The position numbers were made by a program, and so were the translations under genes. Source: an uncultured Desulfurococcaceae archaeon (lineage in GTDB: Archaea > Thermoproteota > Thermoprotei_A > Sulfolobales > NBVN01). Taken from it: a DNA stretch of 64,000 bases. The notes below the pieces were generated by a model. That model searched no databases, was not told the DNA's origin, and was given only the letters and a program-made list of their open reading frames with translations. Location: the NCBI GenBank assembly GCA_964399035.1, contig CAYNPH010000048.1, forward strand, positions 9,685 through 73,684, written 5' to 3'. This document shows positions 18,757 to 62,395 of the stretch, piece by piece (position 1 is the first letter of the stretch; each line of letters starts with the position of its first letter).

Positions 18757-18870
18757 AAATAACCCCCAAGTATTTTAATGAATAGCTTTAAAAGTCGTGG
18801 CCTGCCCAGTACGGGGAACTCACCTAAAACTTAAATTAGGAGGCATTAGGTTAGACTGTAGGTGTGGACT

Positions 18871-19122
18871 ATGGCAATCCAGAGAAGCGAGAGTCCCTTA
18901 AGGACCCTGAGGTCGTCCGTCAATAAGGACGTATTAGTTAAGATTAAGGACGGGAACTCGTATTACGGTAGGCTAATAATGACTGACCCCACAATGAATG
19001 TAGTCATGACTGATTGCGAGGAAATCTCTGATGAGGGGGGAGAGCCCATAGCTAGGTATGGCACCGTGTTAATCAGAGGAAGTCAGATCCTCTACATAAT
19101 CGTTGACTATCGTAAGCAGTAA
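18871..19122 (+). CDS. Sm-like archaeal protein (SmAP/LSm)
   Basis: Sm1/Sm2 pattern VLVKIKDGNSYYGRLIMTDPTMNVVMTDCEE...VLIRGSQILYI. The ORF opens at GTG 18862, with an ATG at 18871. Confidence 0.85.
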   Translation: MAIQRSESPLRTLRSSVNKDVLVKIKDGNSYYGRLIMTDPTMNVVMTDCEEISDEGGEPIARYGTVLIRGSQILYIIVDYRKQ

Positions 19123-19250: not shown

Positions 19251-20477
19251 ATGCAGGGGAGAAACATACGTGTGGAGGCCGTTTCCTGGACGCCGGTCGA
19301 GGAGCAGATGGTAGAGCTTGTTGAAAGGAAGGGTATTGGACATCCAGACTACATAGCGGATGCGGCTTCTGAGGTGTCTAGCGTTATTCTCTCAAAATAC
19401 TATCTTGAGCACTACGGATACATCCTTCACCACAACCTCGATAAGGTTCTGCTTGTCGGGGGTCAGGCAAGGCCTGTCTTCGGTGGCGGAGAAATCCTTC
19501 ACCCGATATACATAATAGTCGCTGGCAGGGCAACGGAATACGTCATTAGCAGGGATGGTGGAATAGAAAGAATTCCGGTCGGGACACTTGTTATCGGGGC
19601 CGTCAAGAGCTGGATAAAGAAGAACTTCCGTTTCCTTGACCCGGAGCGTCACGTTATAGTAGATTACATGATAAGGAGCGGGAGTTCAGACCTTGTAGGA
19701 GTCTACGAGCTAGGCAAGAAGACCAAGCCATTAGCTAATGATACAAGCTTTGGCGTAAGTTTCGCCCCGCTCTCAACGCTGGAGACTTTAGTCCTAAAGA
19801 CCGAGCGCTTCCTTAACTCTAGAGAATTCAAGGAAAAGCTACCTGAGGTTGGGGAAGACATTAAGGTTATGGGGCTAAGGACAGGGAAGAAGATAACGTT
19901 AACGATTGCGGCAGCCATGATATCTTCGTTAATACCTGACATGGATCATTACCTGTCGGTAAAGGAGGAGGTTCTAAACAAGGTGAGTGATCTAGCATCT
20001 AAGATAGCGCCTGACTACGAAGTCGAGGTTCAGGTTAATACGGCGGATAAGCCTGACAAGGGGATAGCCTACATAACCGTGACGGGAACGTCGGCAGAGC
20101 ACGGGGATGATGGAATGACGGGCAGGGGCAATAGGGCTAACGGACTAATAACTCCCCTAAGACCCATGAGTCTTGAGGCAACAGCAGGGAAGAATCCCGT
20201 CAGTCACGTTGGTAAGATATACAACGTATTAGCTATGAGGATAGCCAACAGAATAGCCAGTGAGATTCCGAAAGTTCGTGAGGTTTATGTAGAGATACTC
20301 TCAAGAATAGGTTACCCAATAGACTTGCCTCAAGTAGCGGTGGCGAAGATACTTCCGGAAGATCCTGCATCATTCCTCTCTATGAAGTCGGATGCGGAAT
20401 CAATAATTAACGAGGAACTTGAGAATATAACGAAGCTAACGGATCTTATAGTTAACGGGCAAGCAATGCTATTTTAG
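19251..20477 (+). CDS. mat: archaeal-type S-adenosylmethionine synthetase
   Basis: [15 protein letters not shown]-terminal motif and about 400 aa length, typical of archaeal MAT. Confidence 0.93.
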
Positions 20478-20597: not shown

Positions 20598-21494
20598 ATG
20601 GAGTTAGCTCTGCTCTATAGGGGCTTAGACAAGGATTGTTTCACCGTCCTCAAAGTCCTAGATTCGATGCTAAGTAAGTACGAATATGTCCCCTTAGAGG
20701 TAATAGAAAGGAGGAGCAAGCTACCGCCTAAGGTTCTGGCACGTGTGTTGACTAGGCTAAACAAGATAAAAGCAATAATACGGACGTTAACCCCTAAGAC
20801 GGGCTACCGCCTTACCTACATAGGTCTAGATCTACTGGCCCTTCATTCTCTTAGTAACGCCGGGGTGATAGCGTATCTCGGGACAAAGGTCGGTACTGGA
20901 AAAGAAAGTGAGATATACATTGCCAAGAACCCTGAAGGGCAATTACTCGCTGTGAAGTTTTATAAGATAGGGCGCGTTAGCTTCCAGAAAGTAAAGAGGG
21001 TGCGATCATACCTAGTAGATGAGACCAATTGGATGATCAGATCTAAAGTCACTGCTGAAAGAGAGTATAAAGCATTGAGAGATCTAATTAAATTCACACC
21101 ATATGTCCCTAAGACCTACGGGTGGAATAGACATGCAGTAGTGTTAAGCTACATAAGTGGGATCGAACTTTACCGCTACAAGGTAGCAATTGACCCTGAG
21201 GGACTCCTTGAAAAGATACTAAGCACTTTGAGGGAAGCCTACCTCCATGTGGGCATAGTTCACGGTGACTTAAGTGAATACAACATAGTTGTCTCCATAG
21301 AAGGTGATGATGAGGTACCCTACATAATTGACTGGCCACAATACGTTTACAGAGACGACCCGAATCACGAGGCTCTTCTCCGCAGAGACGTGGAATACGT
21401 GCTCAAGTTCTTTAAGCGCCGTTACCGAGTCAACATTGATGTCGAGAGGGCCATCAAGTACGTCCGGGGAGAAGCAGAGAAGCTGTGGGCATGA
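20598..21494 (+). CDS. rio2: RIO-type serine/threonine kinase Rio2
   Basis: N-terminal winged-helix region plus a RIO kinase core (LAVKFYK, IVHGDLSEYNIV, IDWPQ). Confidence 0.9.
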   Translation: MELALLYRGLDKDCFTVLKVLDSMLSKYEYVPLEVIERRSKLPPKVLARVLTRLNKIKAIIRTLTPKTGYRLTYIGLDLLALHSLSNAGVIAYLGTKVGTGKESEIYIAKNPEGQLLAVKFYKIGRVSFQKVKRVRSYLVDETNWMIRSKVTAEREYKALRDLIKFTPYVPKTYGWNRHAVVLSYISGIELYRYKVAIDPEGLLEKILSTLREAYLHVGIVHGDLSEYNIVVSIEGDDEVPYIIDWPQYVYRDDPNHEALLRRDVEYVLKFFKRRYRVNIDVERAIKYVRGEAEKLWA

Positions 21495-23541
21495 GCGGAC
21501 ATACGTAGGCGTAGACATAGTTAAGAGTGGCGGCAAAGCCCTTAACAAGTACGTCTACGCTATAGCGCTAGTTAAGAACGGCCGAGTGCTTAAGGTAGAT
21601 AGAGGCAACCTTGGCCGGTTAGTGAGGTACCTGTGGGATTACAGACCCGCAACGCTTGCAACGGACAACATCCTTGAATTAGGGGGCTCCAAAAGGAACT
21701 TAGTTCGAATACTGAAGCTCGTACCACCGGACACGGAGTTCATTCAGGTAACGTTAGAAGGGCAGACCCTCATGAACTTAAGACGTGTAGCCAGCATAGC
21801 GGGCATGGAACTCGATAAAGGTAAGCTGAACCCCGCCAAGACAGCAGTCCTCGTTGCAACCCTAGCATGGAGTGGGTACGGAGAAAGACTAGACGTTTAC
21901 GAAAGGAAGGTCAGGATAAACGTATTCAAGGGTAGGTCTGGTCATGCGGGAGGCTCGCGCGCGGGCAAATTCCAGAGAAATCTTCGGGGAGCCGTAGCGC
22001 GAATGGTTAAGAAGCTTAGGGAGGAATTAGAGCGCCGCGGATTCGATTACGACGTAATGATTCGCCGTAGTAAGGGAGGGGTTGAACAGGCCGTATTTAC
22101 CGTATATGCATCGAGGGAAGAGCTATTCGGTGTTGTAAAGAGAGTTAAAGGCTACGATGTTGAAGTGAGGATAAAACCTGTCATAAGTAGGAAGTTCCTC
22201 AAGTTAGTCGCGCCGCAGGAGATCCCTAAGAAGTACCTCATAGTTGGTTACGATCCTGGAATGCAGGTCGGCCTAGCTGTAATAGACTTAGACATGAAGC
22301 CCCACCTAATAACATCCGGGCGTGAGCTTGATCGAGGGGAGATACTCTCGAAACTCACGAGTATAGGCATACCTGTTATAGTAGCTACCGATAAGAACCC
22401 ACCACCCGAGATGGTCAGAAAACTTGCGGCGATGTTGAACGCCCAGCTATTCGTGCCTCCACGGTCACTCTCTACAAGCGAGAAGGAAATACTGGTGTCA
22501 GAGTACAGCCGCTCGTACAGTGTGGCGGTCAAGAATACACATGAGCGTGACGCACTTTCCGCGGCGTTGAAGGCATATAGGTTCTACCAAGATAAGCTGG
22601 ACAAGCTGGTGAAGAAAATCAGGAGTATGGGGCTCTCCGTAAAGAATCTACAGAAATATAAGGTACGAATACTGATGAATGAGCCCCTAAGCGCGATAAT
22701 CGAGGATATAATTAACGACTATATTAAGCCAGTCGATTCCTCAGTAACTTCATTAAGAAAGCAAGCCCCGCTAACGTTGCCACATCAAGCTCACGAGATC
22801 TCTAAATATACTGAGAAGATCAGAGAGCTTGAACGACGTGTGGATGAATTGCTTCGAGAGCGTGAAATTCTGAAGAGTAAGGTTAGAGATTCTGAAGTCC
22901 GCATTAAGGAACTAGAGCATAGTGTGCGAACGTTAACGGAATCCATGAACGAAAAAATTGCTAGGGATAGGAAGGTTAGCGAGCTCCTGACAAGGCTCAA
23001 GAATGCCTCGCAGAGAATTGAGGAACTAGAGCACAAAGTGCTTAGTTTGAAGGAAAGATTAACCTCCGTGGGTAAAGTTCTTGAACGCGTATTCGCGGGC
23101 GAATTAACGCTCCTACCGCGCTACGGAGTCAAGTACGTAGTGAGTGATGACAAGTTAAGGGCAGTGTTCGTTAACGATCCGCGTCAAATATTTTCGGTCG
23201 GTACTGTAGGTAACCTAGCCTCGAGGGAAGTTGTATTGCCGCCGGGTCATGAGAAAGACTCCAAACTCCTCGTAAAGGAGTACCTAATACCAGCAACAAC
23301 AGCCCGGGAAGTATGGGACGTGAGTCCAAGCTTAGTCGCTGTGGACTCCGAGACACTTAGCAGATTGCGCGCGGCTGAGGAGGAGGTCGCGAGAATTAAG
23401 GAAGAGATGATGAGACAAAGGGAGCTAACCTATGCAGATCTGGAAGCCATCTTGAAAGAATATCGGGAGTCCCGCCTATCAACCTCACTGAATGCGTCCA
23501 AGGTAAAGCACCTTGAAGGTTATGTAAGAGAGCACGATTGA
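21439..23541 (+). CDS. DUF460-like archaeal protein: RNase H/RuvC-like folds plus a long coiled coil
   Basis: YVGVDIV near the N-terminus, a second LIVGYDPGMQVGLAVIDLD motif, and a heptad-rich segment 22790-23040. The start is uncertain: the ORF is open from 21328, and ATG 21439 lies inside rio2. Confidence 0.6.
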   Translation: MSRGPSSTSGEKQRSCGHERTYVGVDIVKSGGKALNKYVYAIALVKNGRVLKVDRGNLGRLVRYLWDYRPATLATDNILELGGSKRNLVRILKLVPPDTEFIQVTLEGQTLMNLRRVASIAGMELDKGKLNPAKTAVLVATLAWSGYGERLDVYERKVRINVFKGRSGHAGGSRAGKFQRNLRGAVARMVKKLREELERRGFDYDVMIRRSKGGVEQAVFTVYASREELFGVVKRVKGYDVEVRIKPVISRKFLKLVAPQEIPKKYLIVGYDPGMQVGLAVIDLDMKPHLITSGRELDRGEILSKLTSIGIPVIVATDKNPPPEMVRKLAAMLNAQLFVPPRSLSTSEKEILVSEYSRSYSVAVKNTHERDALSAALKAYRFYQDKLDKLVKKIRSMGLSVKNLQKYKVRILMNEPLSAIIEDIINDYIKPVDSSVTSLRKQAPLTLPHQAHEISKYTEKIRELERRVDELLREREILKSKVRDSEVRIKELEHSVRTLTESMNEKIARDRKVSELLTRLKNASQRIEELEHKVLSLKERLTSVGKVLERVFAGELTLLPRYGVKYVVSDDKLRAVFVNDPRQIFSVGTVGNLASREVVLPPGHEKDSKLLVKEYLIPATTAREVWDVSPSLVAVDSETLSRLRAAEEEVARIKEEMMRQRELTYADLEAILKEYRESRLSTSLNASKVKHLEGYVREHD

Positions 23542-25137: not shown

Positions 25138-25224
25138 TTCGCCACACCACGCGGTAAAGTATATTGCCTCCTCAATTTATAAAGACGCTAGGGGCCACGC
25201 ATGGGGAAGCGCCGTAGGAAGTTA

Positions 25225-25539
25225 ATGTTTAAGAAAGAGTACGGGGAGGGCATAGTTAAGGGGTCGAAGACATCAACGATAAGACTCTCCAGCACCCTCA
25301 AGAAGGGAGATGAAGTTGAGATAGTTGCTGGCAGGGTTCGACTAGGGGTTGCTAAGATTGAGGATGTTGAAGTAAAGAAGGTTCGTGAGTTAACAGATGA
25401 GGATGCCAGAACCGATGGCTTTAAGAATAGGGAGGAGCTTGTAAAGGCCCTTAAAAGGATTTATGGGAGCAGGATTACAGACAGGACTGAGGTTAAACTC
25501 ATAAGGTTTCGCATGATTAAAGACGATGAAGAACAGTAA
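25225..25539 (+). CDS. ASCH-domain protein
   Basis: GSKTSTIRL...KGDEVEIV pattern of the ASCH/PUA-like fold. TATA-like TTTATAAA at about 25181 favours ATG 25225 over 25201. Confidence 0.6.
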   Translation: MFKKEYGEGIVKGSKTSTIRLSSTLKKGDEVEIVAGRVRLGVAKIEDVEVKKVRELTDEDARTDGFKNREELVKALKRIYGSRITDRTEVKLIRFRMIKDDEEQ

Positions 25540-25560: not shown

Positions 25561-25962
25561 TCACATTGTAAACCTTATGTATGCTATACTGGACTTAGGG
25601 ACTATGTACCCCTTATCCTCTACCCTGAATCCTAGTTCGTACTTTGTAACCTTCATTAACTTCCCCTGAAAGCTTAGCCCATTTACTAAGTATACCTCCA
25701 CATCGCTTCCCACCATGTCAGAATCTATGACTGTGTCCCTCAGCTGCTCGTTGCTGTATCCGTGTAGTTCAGTGGCCTCAGCAACGGCATATAGCATTGC
25801 ATGTCTAAAGATCACCACTGGTAAGCCCTCTGACCGAACACCTATTTCGTACCTAGCTACCTCATCTATTAATCCCTTGATTGGCTCATCCTTCCCCATA
25901 ACATAGATAGTTACTTCCCGACCAACGAATCTCGCATCTATCAAGTTCTCTCTGAGAGGCAT
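25561..25962 (-). CDS. tandem Sm/Hfq-like domain protein
   Basis: Two internally homologous halves. Half 2 has VEVYLVNGLSFQGKL (compare Hfq IYLVNGIKLQGQI). Half 1 has VVIFRHAMLYAV (compare Hfq MVYKHAISTVV). Confidence 0.6.
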   Translation of the reverse strand: MPLRENLIDARFVGREVTIYVMGKDEPIKGLIDEVARYEIGVRSEGLPVVIFRHAMLYAVAEATELHGYSNEQLRDTVIDSDMVGSDVEVYLVNGLSFQGKLMKVTKYELGFRVEDKGYIVPKSSIAYIRFTM

Positions 25963-26043
25963 TTCCTAACGCACCACTAGCTATTCTTAAGTCAACTATA
26001 ATAAGCTGTGTTGTTTGCATAGGTATTGGGCTATGCCGGAAAA

Positions 26044-26107
26044 GTCGATGATGAATTGTAGCGGTATGATTAAGTAACTTAATGATTAGGCTGAGCTACT
26101 CTGAGAC
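26044..26107 (+). ncRNA. candidate C/D box sRNA, partly antisense to the 3' end of CDS 26079..26906
   Basis: C AUGAUGA 26048-54, D'-like AUGA 26066-69, C'-like AUGAUUA 26082-88, 12-nt spacer, D CUGA 26101-04. A 3-bp terminal stem GUC/GAC is possible. Confidence 0.4.
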
Positions 26108-26906
26108 TCTCTTGTACTTCCCTGCCAGTTATCATCAGTGTGAGTGAAGTCATAGTTTCGACGAACTTAAACATGAGTTCAGGGTGATGTTCAGAGAAGT
26201 CTGCCGAAATGTTCTTTAGTATTGGGTTGATGCACCCCTCTTCAACTGCACGAATACTGGGTGATGCGCTGTCATTCAAATCATCAAGTATTCCCTTAAA
26301 GAACGCGTATGCGTATACGTCCTGACGTAGTATGTTGCTCATGGGATGTGCTATGACACTCTGCCCAACAACTCTGGGTAACGGACTGACCTCCCTCGTT
26401 AGCGTTACGTCAGCAAGAAGAGATTGGAGCTGAATCTCGAAAAAGTCACTTAAGGTTAGAGGCGTCAGAACAGCGTCAATTCTGAAACCTATGTTCCGTA
26501 GCCACGGTGTAAGGGAGTTTATGATTCCCGGTAAGCTGAAGGGCTTTATTTTCTCTTCCGCCTTAACAGTAAGGTGAATTAAGGGTATCCTTCGTGCTAG
26601 CTTTGCACGCATAGCCTGTGATACTGTGTGATCAAAAACAAGAACTAGTACGTGGCCCCCATGCCTCTCCTCGATTAGGTTAATTATCTCTGCTAACACT
26701 AGACTCTCTACGATTCTTTCCTTTAAAGCAAGTACAGCAACTAATGCGCCGTGCCTTAACCTTACAGACCTGGAGATCCCTTTCCTAACTCTTTTGACTA
26801 AGGACCTACTTAAGCAGTAAGCGCATAACCTCTCTCCCGAGTCCCGTCTACGATATACGGCAGGTCTCCGCTTGCATACGTCACATAGCTTTACGCCAAC
26901 GTTCAA
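26079..26906 (-). CDS. TtuA/NcsA-like PP-loop ATPase paralog with a degenerate PP-loop
   Basis: N-terminal CxxC..CxxC finger and collinear resemblance to tRNA thiolases. LALKER stands where SGGKDS is expected. Confidence 0.55.
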   Translation of the reverse strand: MNVGVKLCDVCKRRPAVYRRRDSGERLCAYCLSRSLVKRVRKGISRSVRLRHGALVAVLALKERIVESLVLAEIINLIEERHGGHVLVLVFDHTVSQAMRAKLARRIPLIHLTVKAEEKIKPFSLPGIINSLTPWLRNIGFRIDAVLTPLTLSDFFEIQLQSLLADVTLTREVSPLPRVVGQSVIAHPMSNILRQDVYAYAFFKGILDDLNDSASPSIRAVEEGCINPILKNISADFSEHHPELMFKFVETMTSLTLMITGREVQESLRVAQPNH

Positions 26907-62307: not shown

Positions 62308-62395
62308 GCCGGGGTGCCCGAGCGGCCCAAGGGGCCGGCCTTGAGAGCCGGTGGACGAGCCGTCCGCGCGGGTTCGAATCCCGCCCCCGGCGCCA
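62308..62395 (+). tRNA. tRNA-Ser (anticodon UGA), class II with long variable arm, genomically encoded CCA
   Basis: Acceptor GCCGGGG/CCCCGGC. Anticodon stem CCGGC/GCCGG with loop CUUGAGA. Variable arm GGACG-AGC-CGUCC. T arm GCGGG-UUCGAAU-CCCGC. Discriminator G followed by CCA. Confidence 0.93.

Follow-up and report, generated by a model that had tools for sequence, protein, structure and literature searches.

A gene on the minus strand of a 64,000-nucleotide stretch of DNA from an uncultured Desulfurococcaceae archaeon (contig CAYNPH010000048.1; the whole stretch is called the window here, and its numbering is used throughout) encodes a 133-residue protein that is very probably a tandem Hfq-like protein of the Sm fold. 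It can best be regarded as a new tandem form within the Hfq branch of the Sm superfamily, restricted to one lineage. The gene at 25561..25962 is real, conserved and under selection, and the translation of this minus-strand open reading frame (ORF) is exactly the sequence quoted in an initial annotation of the window, which omitted the strand.

Internal duplication and relationship to Hfq

A single BLASTP comparison aligns residues 3-58 with residues 74-129 at 29 % identity and 59 % positives, with one gap and an E value of 4e-8. Profiles of the N half (A2) and the C half (A3) were made from 22 diverse family members that were split at a conserved L-H-G motif, and the two profiles align with a probability of 98.9 % over 61 columns (hhalign, 22 versus 22 halves, E 1.3e-17). 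The similarity of the halves is far beyond chance, and the internal duplication is therefore real. The initial annotation had proposed two homologous halves in this same alignment, which both methods uphold, and the self-alignment of the halves is significant. A rough neighbour-joining tree, without support values, puts all N halves in one group and all C halves in another, and this separation indicates one ancient duplication that took place before the family diversified.

Profile searches place both halves close to Hfq. Pfam Hfq (PF17209) ranks first on the window protein and matches it in two stretches (26.6 bits, E 4.6e-6), and Pfam LSM (PF01423) gives no match at E<10. A search of all PDB sequences with the family profile returned only Hfq proteins below E 0.01, with 2QTX (Methanocaldococcus jannaschii MJ1435) matching the C half at E 1.2e-4 and 1KQ1 (S. 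aureus Hfq) matching the N half at E 3.6e-4, and no Sm-like archaeal protein (SmAP) was found in this search even at E 10. Comparison by hhalign with a three-sequence Hfq alignment gave probabilities of 97.4 % for the N half and 95.7 % for the C half, versus 0.4 % and 10.7 % with a SmAP profile of the same genomes. Both halves are therefore Hfq-like and not SmAP-like. M. jannaschii Hfq alone gave 97.3 % and 95.8 % for the N and C halves and E. coli Hfq alone gave 5.8 % and 15.1 %; the nearest relative of both halves, as judged from these profiles, is thus Hfq of the archaeal M. jannaschii kind and not that of E. coli. The initial annotation had likened both halves to bacterial Hfq more than to SmAP, and it was right about the family, with the nearest member here refined. 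The E. coli resemblances that it named, IYLVNGIKLQGQI and YKHAISTV, are both present in the alignment with Hfq proteins. Across the family, PF17209 is assigned to 15 of the 19 homologue clusters (precomputed Pfam annotation of the database, version.10), and of the single domains only 3 N halves and 8 C halves, out of 22 each, matched Pfam Hfq at E<0.01. One divergent member, P0024, features a sub-threshold LSM match (22.1 bits vs 23.4).

The alignment with Hfq proteins also locates the residues that line the proximal uridine pocket of Hfq, and the conservation of each was counted in columns over the 22 family members. The Hfq position F/Y42 aligns with Y38 in the N domain (22/22) and with Y108 in the C domain (20/22). 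Hfq K56-H57 aligns with R53 (22/22) and H54 (21/22) in the N domain, and with K123 (21/22) and S124 (20/22) in the C domain, where a P-K-S motif replaces the Sm2 histidine. Compared with the Sm2 motif [YF]-K-H-A-[IV], the N domain reads F-R-H-A/S-I, with Lys changed to Arg, and the C domain reads P-K-S-S/A-I, with His changed to Ser in 20/22. The heads of the two domains carry opposite sets of residues: R4, R11, and R/K15 in the N domain, with a net charge of -1 to +3, and D76, D/E82, and D/E87 in the C domain, with a net charge of -2 to -7. The two domains have diverged in sequence and charge since the duplication. They are joined by a family-specific and nearly invariant linker motif, L-H-G-Y-S-x-E-x-L-x-D-T-V-I, in which H67, G68, D76, and V78 are invariant and L66, Y69, S70, E72, L74, T77, and I79 are nearly so.

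Predicted fold, proposed ring and alternatives

AlphaFold2 (AF2) models of monomers were built on a 17-sequence alignment. The model of the window protein has a predicted local distance difference test (pLDDT) of 93.3 and a predicted template modelling (TM) score (pTM) of 0.88, and the same picture was obtained for P0019, a 36 %-identical family member that was modelled on the same alignment (pLDDT 89.4, pTM 0.84). The predicted chain features a short helix and five strands twice, with strands at residues 16-21, 28-35, 39-44, 47-52, and 56-60 in unit 1 and at residues 87-92, 97-105, 109-114, 117-122, and 126-131 in unit 2, and residues 61-80 join the units. The Hfq-family fold, in which a short helix at the N terminus precedes five antiparallel and strongly bent strands, is found twice per chain in the prediction, in keeping with the duplicated Sm fold that the initial annotation had proposed. 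The predicted fold consists of two five-stranded barrels in one fixed mutual orientation. In Foldseek searches with both models, single barrels superpose on dozens of Hfq chains in the PDB with a root-mean-square deviation (rmsd) of ~0.9-1.3 Å over 45-55 residues, and the top 50 matches of either model contain no SmAP or LSm chain.

The sole PDB match at E<0.001 in the Foldseek searches is 2X4J, the crystal structure of ORF137 from Pyrobaculum spherical virus (PSV), which covers both barrels. It is the best whole-chain match (TMt 0.81, rmsd 2.6 Å, and 122 columns for the window protein; TMt 0.77 for P0019), and the initial annotation missed it. Among the BFVD viral models, proteins of PSV2 and PSV rank first and third. 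The modelled two-barrel arrangement matches that of 2X4J, and no other solved structure covers the two barrels together; ORF137 is also similar in length (136 residues), and its C domain features a Hfq-like VTVYLANG..G.L......YEV pattern. ORF137 differs in being 16-19 % identical to the family, with a collinear hhalign alignment of E 9e-4 and probability 23 %, in having a degenerate N domain and no RH or KS motif, and in being the gene of a Thermoproteales virus. ORF137 (L034:6420-6827) is matched by Pfam DUF5607 and DUF5608 with 162 and 141 bits, and the window protein, for which more than 25 bits with both families was taken as membership, gives 14.3 bits (E 0.041) with DUF5608 and is not listed for DUF5607. 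In the SSPF paper 2X4J is just an entry in a table, and the literature search turned up nothing else on it.

Among single sequences, MJ1435, the Hfq of M. jannaschii (2QTX, 4X9C, 4X9D, 5DY9), stands closest to both halves, and it also gives the top match among PDB sequences. Its best-fitting chains superpose on the single barrels of the window protein at ~0.9-1.0 Å, a short N-terminal helix is present in both (PMC3710371 for MJ1435; AF2 here), and the aromatic residue and the [FY][KR]HA Sm2 motif are common to MJ1435 and the window N domain. M. jannaschii Hfq forms hexamers and binds small RNAs (PMC3710371). MJ1435 consists of one 71-residue domain, assembles as a homohexamer and belongs to a euryarchaeal methanogen, whereas the window protein features two diverged fused domains, the second without the histidine, an added linker motif, and hosts in the Thermoproteota (Desulfurococcales). 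Bacterial Hfq (PF17209, TIGR02383) shares the Sm1/Sm2 pattern, the residues at F/Y42 and K56-H57, and a barrel that superposes within ~1 Å; the window protein differs from it in being a tandem, in having no disordered C-terminal tail, in not keeping Q8, and in scoring below the curated cut-offs. SmAP1/2/3 (PF01423) are of the same superfamily and fold, and one of them is encoded in the same genome (18862..19122).

Other proteins also feature more than one Hfq-like barrel. NF010691/PRK14091 is a 176-position Hfq model with two Hfq-like barrels, and it aligns residues 27-126 of the window protein with positions 47-156 at E 0.078; the score of 12.5 bits compares with a cut-off of 270 bits for this tandem Hfq. 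The members of PRK14091 are presumably tandem Hfq proteins of sphingomonads. Two Hfq-like stretches were also seen in the metagenomic proteins P0029, P0028, P0026, P0030, and P0036, and six in the 996-residue P0034. The five two-barrel proteins resemble the window protein in carrying two Hfq-like barrels per chain, which in P0029 coincide with two Pfam Hfq stretches, but these unnamed tandems are very distant from the window family (E 1e-7 to 1e-4). In the tree, the two halves of P0029 pair together, as do those of P0028, and they fall outside the N and C groups of the window family; tandem duplication of Hfq-like barrels has therefore arisen several times independently.

The explanation favoured here starts from a cellular chromosomal gene for two fused Hfq-type Sm barrels that arose by one ancient internal duplication and have diverged since. 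Three chains would join by the usual Sm strand-4/strand-5 edge pairing into a six-barrel ring, or pseudo-hexamer. The nucleotide pockets between the barrels would alternate around this ring, each lined by Y38 and Y108, so that three carry the canonical R53-H54 from the N domain and three carry the altered K123-S124 from the C domain. Along the rim, the basic heads of the N domains (R4, R11, R/K15) would likewise take turns with the acidic heads of the C domains (D76, D/E82, D/E87). The ligand of such a ring would be single-stranded RNA, probably rich in U, bound with three-fold and not six-fold symmetry. The protein would work beside the SmAPs as an RNA-binding factor or chaperone, and its gene neighbourhood suggests a role in the maturation of stable RNAs (tRNA/rRNA). 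RNA binding by the tandem Hfq-like protein is likely, the trimeric ring could go either way, and the explanation as a whole is held with somewhat more confidence than doubt.

The ring competes with a closed two-barrel module, which would be a monomer or dimer without a ring, as is maybe the case for PSV ORF137. Its ligand, a nucleic acid or a partner protein, would be held by a composite surface between the domains, of which the linker LHGYS..L.DTVI would be a part. The monomer AF2 models fix both domains relative to each other (pTM 0.88, 0.84), the sole whole-chain structural match, 2X4J, is a Foldseek entry without a chain suffix, and the protein is acidic overall, all of which would fit such a module. 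The linker is also the slowest-evolving and most invariant segment, which suggests that it is more than a tether. However, all solved-structure Hfqs among the matches are ring formers, and the hydrophobic ring edges on strand 4 and strand 5 are kept in both domains. Y38, R53, H54, and Y108 are also kept, and in Hfq such residues make a pocket only between adjacent barrels of the ring, as seen in the Hfq-RNA structure 1KQ2. A closed module is considered rather unlikely and is the leading alternative to the ring.

A second alternative is a mobile-element or viral gene, recently acquired or part of an integrated element, that would serve the element and not the cell and would have its relatives in globulovirus ORF137 or among the Hfq-like genes on plasmids of archaea. 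Its support comes from the viral origin of the best whole-chain structural matches (2X4J, with the models of PSV and PSV2), the weak collinear similarity to ORF137 (hhalign E 9e-4, probability 23 %), the Hfq-like genes on Thermococcus and Methanocaldococcus plasmids (PMC3543421), and a distant match, P0038, with the zinc-finger-Hfq architecture of the plasmid type. Against this, the gene lies in a housekeeping setting with conserved synteny in more than 30 species-level genomes and is under strong purifying selection, and the ORF137 Pfam families are unmatched (DUF5608 E 0.04; DUF5607 absent). No relatives were found in IMG/VR (2.9 M viral contigs), among plasmids (tblastn), or in PHROGs, and phages (tblastn) gave only matches with an E of 5 or more. 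The tandem Hfq gene is therefore cellular today, present-day membership of a mobile element is unlikely, and this alternative as a whole is very improbable. An exchange between virus and host may have taken place in the distant past. Chance resemblance of another small beta-barrel (PRC, Tudor/Agenet, KOW, or the SH3-like C-terminal domain of RimP) to Hfq is scarcely credible: sub-threshold Pfam matches to DUF150_C (RimP C-terminal SH3, E 0.018) and SM-ATX (E 0.06) and the tandem Tudor and Agenet chains within the Foldseek lists are set against a TM of ~0.3 and an rmsd of 10-14 Å for tandem Tudor versus ~1 Å for Hfq chains, a profile-profile probability to Hfq of 96-97 %, and Sm1 and Sm2 positions that line up. 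PRC, Tudor, and similar small barrels were rejected on this TM, rmsd, and profile evidence, and the profiles together with the AF2 and Foldseek results gave Hfq where the initial annotation had considered a non-Sm fold as the contrary outcome.

Several points weigh against the reading of the protein as a ring-forming RNA factor of the Hfq type. The fixed barrel packing (pTM 0.88) fits a ring segment and a closed non-ring module equally well, and the models of the window protein and P0019 are not independent because they share one alignment. The C domain is without the Sm2 histidine, which in Ignisphaera-type members is absent from both domains, and Hfq Gln8 is not kept, its place being taken by R4 in the N domain and by a residue that varies in the C domain. 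A net charge of ~-4 from sequence makes the protein as a whole acidic, and the C-domain head is strongly so; this acidity does not favour broad RNA binding. The window protein misses the Pfam Hfq gathering threshold of 27 bits by 0.4 bit, which qualifies the profile check proposed in the initial annotation, where Hfq did rank first and LSM gave nothing. TIGR02383, the NCBIfam Hfq equivalog, scores 30.7 bits (E 2e-7) versus a cut-off of 61.7, and the window protein is therefore classed by its score as a Hfq homologue and not as a Hfq equivalog. Additionally, all-against-all clustering of the 33 loci found no neighbour common to every clade, and the functional context from neighbours is therefore only suggestive.

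The gene, its family and its neighbourhood

The gene has 19 homologue clusters at 90 % identity in a 5.8-billion-protein set and occurs at 33 species-level genomic loci. All 33 loci are in metagenome-assembled genomes (MAGs), which are labelled Desulfurococcales, Desulfurococcaceae, Zestosphaera, Zestomicrobium, Thermoprotei, or 'Sulfolobales archaeon', with divergent members in MAGs labelled Ignisphaera aggregans. This supplies the phyletic map that the initial annotation had suggested, and its loci are from Desulfurococcales-type MAGs. The nearest relatives of the window protein are 96-97 % identical and come from vent MAGs with full synteny (L001-L003); the protein collection does not contain the window sequence itself. 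When the family profile was searched against 1.84 billion 50 %-identity representatives, all of which were read (HMMER), 19 proteins were found at E<1e-3, including 6 at E<1e-10. The weaker HMMER matches include single-domain archaeal-type Hfq-like proteins, the zinc-finger-Hfq of plasmid type (P0038), and other two- or multi-domain Hfq-like proteins. A half-domain profile (A5), used in a word-indexed search for single-domain relatives, found nothing but two gene calls of this family that are truncated at the N terminus. The family is small and confined to uncultured hot-vent archaea (Desulfurococcales).

There are some discrepancies regarding the annotation of these proteins. JGI names several members 'sRNA-binding regulator protein Hfq', whereas the NCBI and UniRef names seen are 'hypothetical' or 'uncharacterized'. 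Literature searches found no paper describing a tandem Hfq-like family and nothing relevant on tandem or duplicated Hfq.

Pairwise dN/dS values of the gene are 0.05-0.15 (Nei-Gojobori, pairs with unsaturated dS), and by region the linker has the lowest dN and the C domain the highest, each in 10 of the 11 pairs compared. Purifying selection thus acts on the linker as well as on both domains. Upstream of the start, an A/T-rich TATA-like box at 30-40 nucleotides and a GGTG or GAGG at 6-12 nucleotides are found at orthologous loci of all four neighbourhood types described below, and this recurrence suggests that the gene has its own promoter. The features of the locus are collected in Table 1.

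Table 1. Coordinates of the tandem Hfq-like gene, its domains, and related features in the window
Feature	Position	Strand	Evidence and remarks
Tandem Hfq-like protein gene, complete	25561..25962	-	ATG 25962-25960, TGA 25563-25561; 133 residues
N-terminal Hfq-like domain, residues 1-62	25777..25962	-	AF2; hhalign Hfq 97.4 %; 1KQ1 E 3.6e-4
Inter-domain linker and head of domain 2, residues 63-80	25723..25776	-	Conserved motif; acidic; pLDDT 81-88
C-terminal Hfq-like domain, residues 81-133	25564..25722	-	AF2; hhalign Hfq 95.7 %; 2QTX E 1.2e-4; Pfam Hfq stretch 87-129
Putative own promoter and leader	25963..26010	-	TATA-like TTATTATA ~35-42 nucleotides upstream of ATG; GGTG Shine-Dalgarno-like ~12 nucleotides upstream
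ASCH-domain protein, 112 residues, convergent neighbour	25201..25539	+	Pfam ASCH E 3.4e-17; stop-to-stop 21 nucleotides
Canonical SmAP (LSM domain)	18862..19122	+	In-frame ATG 18871; Pfam LSM E 2.7e-18; separate paralogue
AdoMet synthetase	19251..20477	+	Directly after SmAP; Pfam AdoMet_Synthase E 9e-176

The start region differs in three related orthologues (L013:5980-6040, L014:5965-6040, and L015:5067-5130). Their N-terminal codons are conserved (TVKENIIDERFEGKSIK...), and the stretch from the preceding stop codon to the conserved region contains no ATG, GTG, or TTG in frame. Their gene calls begin at a downstream GTG and give 112-residue products (P0079, P0080), in which the first strand of the N domain would be missing. 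In these loci ATT, GTT, and ACG codons follow a GGGTG Shine-Dalgarno-like motif, and a non-canonical start codon is therefore possible for the three orthologues.

The window surroundings of the gene consist of housekeeping genes for a thermosome, an M50 protease, DUF47/PHO4, DUF460, Rio2, methionine adenosyltransferase (MAT), and SmAP, and synteny is conserved with the thermosome, ASCH, DUF47/PHO4, DUF460, Rio2, MAT, and SmAP genes. ASCH is the most often retained neighbour and is convergent, adjoining or within a few hundred bases, in 22 of the 33 loci (tblastn). The initial annotation had placed a separately encoded canonical SmAP at 18871..19122, and the Pfam LSM match to the ORF at 18862..19122 agrees with this. 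The SmAP and the AdoMet synthetase next to it correspond to the conserved Sm-MAT gene pair of crenarchaea (PMC3710371). This pair is followed by the Rio2 kinase and DUF460 genes, and in many loci the block has kept its linkage to the tandem Hfq and ASCH genes. The DUF460 ORF (21328-23541, plus strand, with a TTG start at 21328) overlaps Rio2 (20598-21494, plus strand) by 167 nucleotides, and orthologous loci show the same overlap in their tblastn matches. Either DUF460 actually starts farther downstream or the genes truly overlap.

Four types of neighbourhood were distinguished. In type A, which includes the window, orf109 and next a TtuA-like gene precede the tandem Hfq gene, and ASCH is convergent. 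Type B features an aminotransferase, LigT, and a CCA-adding enzyme that ends 35 nucleotides upstream of the tandem Hfq gene, with DUF61 convergent. In type C the genes are an MGMT domain, a radical-SAM protein, and the tandem Hfq gene, and ASCH is again convergent, while type D features a KH/Pno1-like protein ahead of the tandem Hfq gene and a convergent diphthamide synthase. In Zestosphaera tikiterensis (NBVN01000003.1, L011:5683-6408) the SmAP gene shares its strand with the tandem Hfq gene and lies 55 nucleotides upstream of it, compared with a spacing of ~6.4 kb in the window, and the two genes may be co-transcribed in this organism. On an Ignisphaera-type contig, the gene for cysteinyl-tRNA synthetase lies upstream of the tandem Hfq gene. 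The recurring RNA-related neighbours (TtuA-like, LigT and CCA-adding enzyme, KH/Pno1-like, ASCH, and SmAP) are suggestive.

Two neighbouring genes have features of their own. The 275-residue protein encoded upstream in the window (26079-26906, minus strand) is recognized by Pfam in its N-terminal TtuA LIM/zinc-finger alone (E 3.7e-4), with no PP-loop domain. It is fast-evolving, with 77-81 % identity in the closest MAGs and 23-30 % in the next clade, where the thermosome retains 75-100 %, and may be a degenerate tRNA-thiolase paralogue. On an Ignisphaera-type contig, a 183-residue ORF without a Pfam match (L035:2686-3237, plus strand) begins 3 nucleotides after the tandem Hfq gene, with which it is probably co-transcribed, and it has no counterpart adjoining the tandem Hfq gene in the window. 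The only structured RNA detected in the whole window, with Rfam gathering thresholds and ARAGORN, is one tRNA-Ser at 62308-62395.

Hfq-type proteins in the Thermoproteota

A 2023 survey limits Hfq among archaea to M. jannaschii (PMC10221803), and reviews report archaeal Hfq only in this species and on some plasmids (PMC10221803; PMC3710371). The family described here puts a Hfq-type protein in the Thermoproteota, beside canonical SmAPs and in a fused form with diverged halves. A broader proposal, which is tentative and rather doubtful, is that a lineage of Thermoproteota (Zestosphaera, Ignisphaera-like organisms, and vent MAGs) possesses a Hfq-type RNA chaperone beside its SmAPs, that this chaperone forms a trimer ring with three canonical and three altered pockets and an alternating rim, and that it has common ancestry with globulovirus ORF137 through virus-host exchange of the two-barrel module. 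If this is true, it would overturn the statement that confines archaeal Hfq to M. jannaschii. A dedicated profile would settle the conflicting annotation of these proteins, and the orphan viral structure 2X4J (DUF5607/DUF5608) gains a cellular relative and hence a functional lead.

The hetero-heptameric Sm rings of eukaryotes are thought to have arisen when a homomeric ring gave way to one with differentiated subunits. If the broader proposal is true, the family would be a natural example of this step. If the ring forms, its different pockets and rims could be mutated separately, and the protein would provide a single-gene model for Sm rings moving from identical to differentiated subunits.

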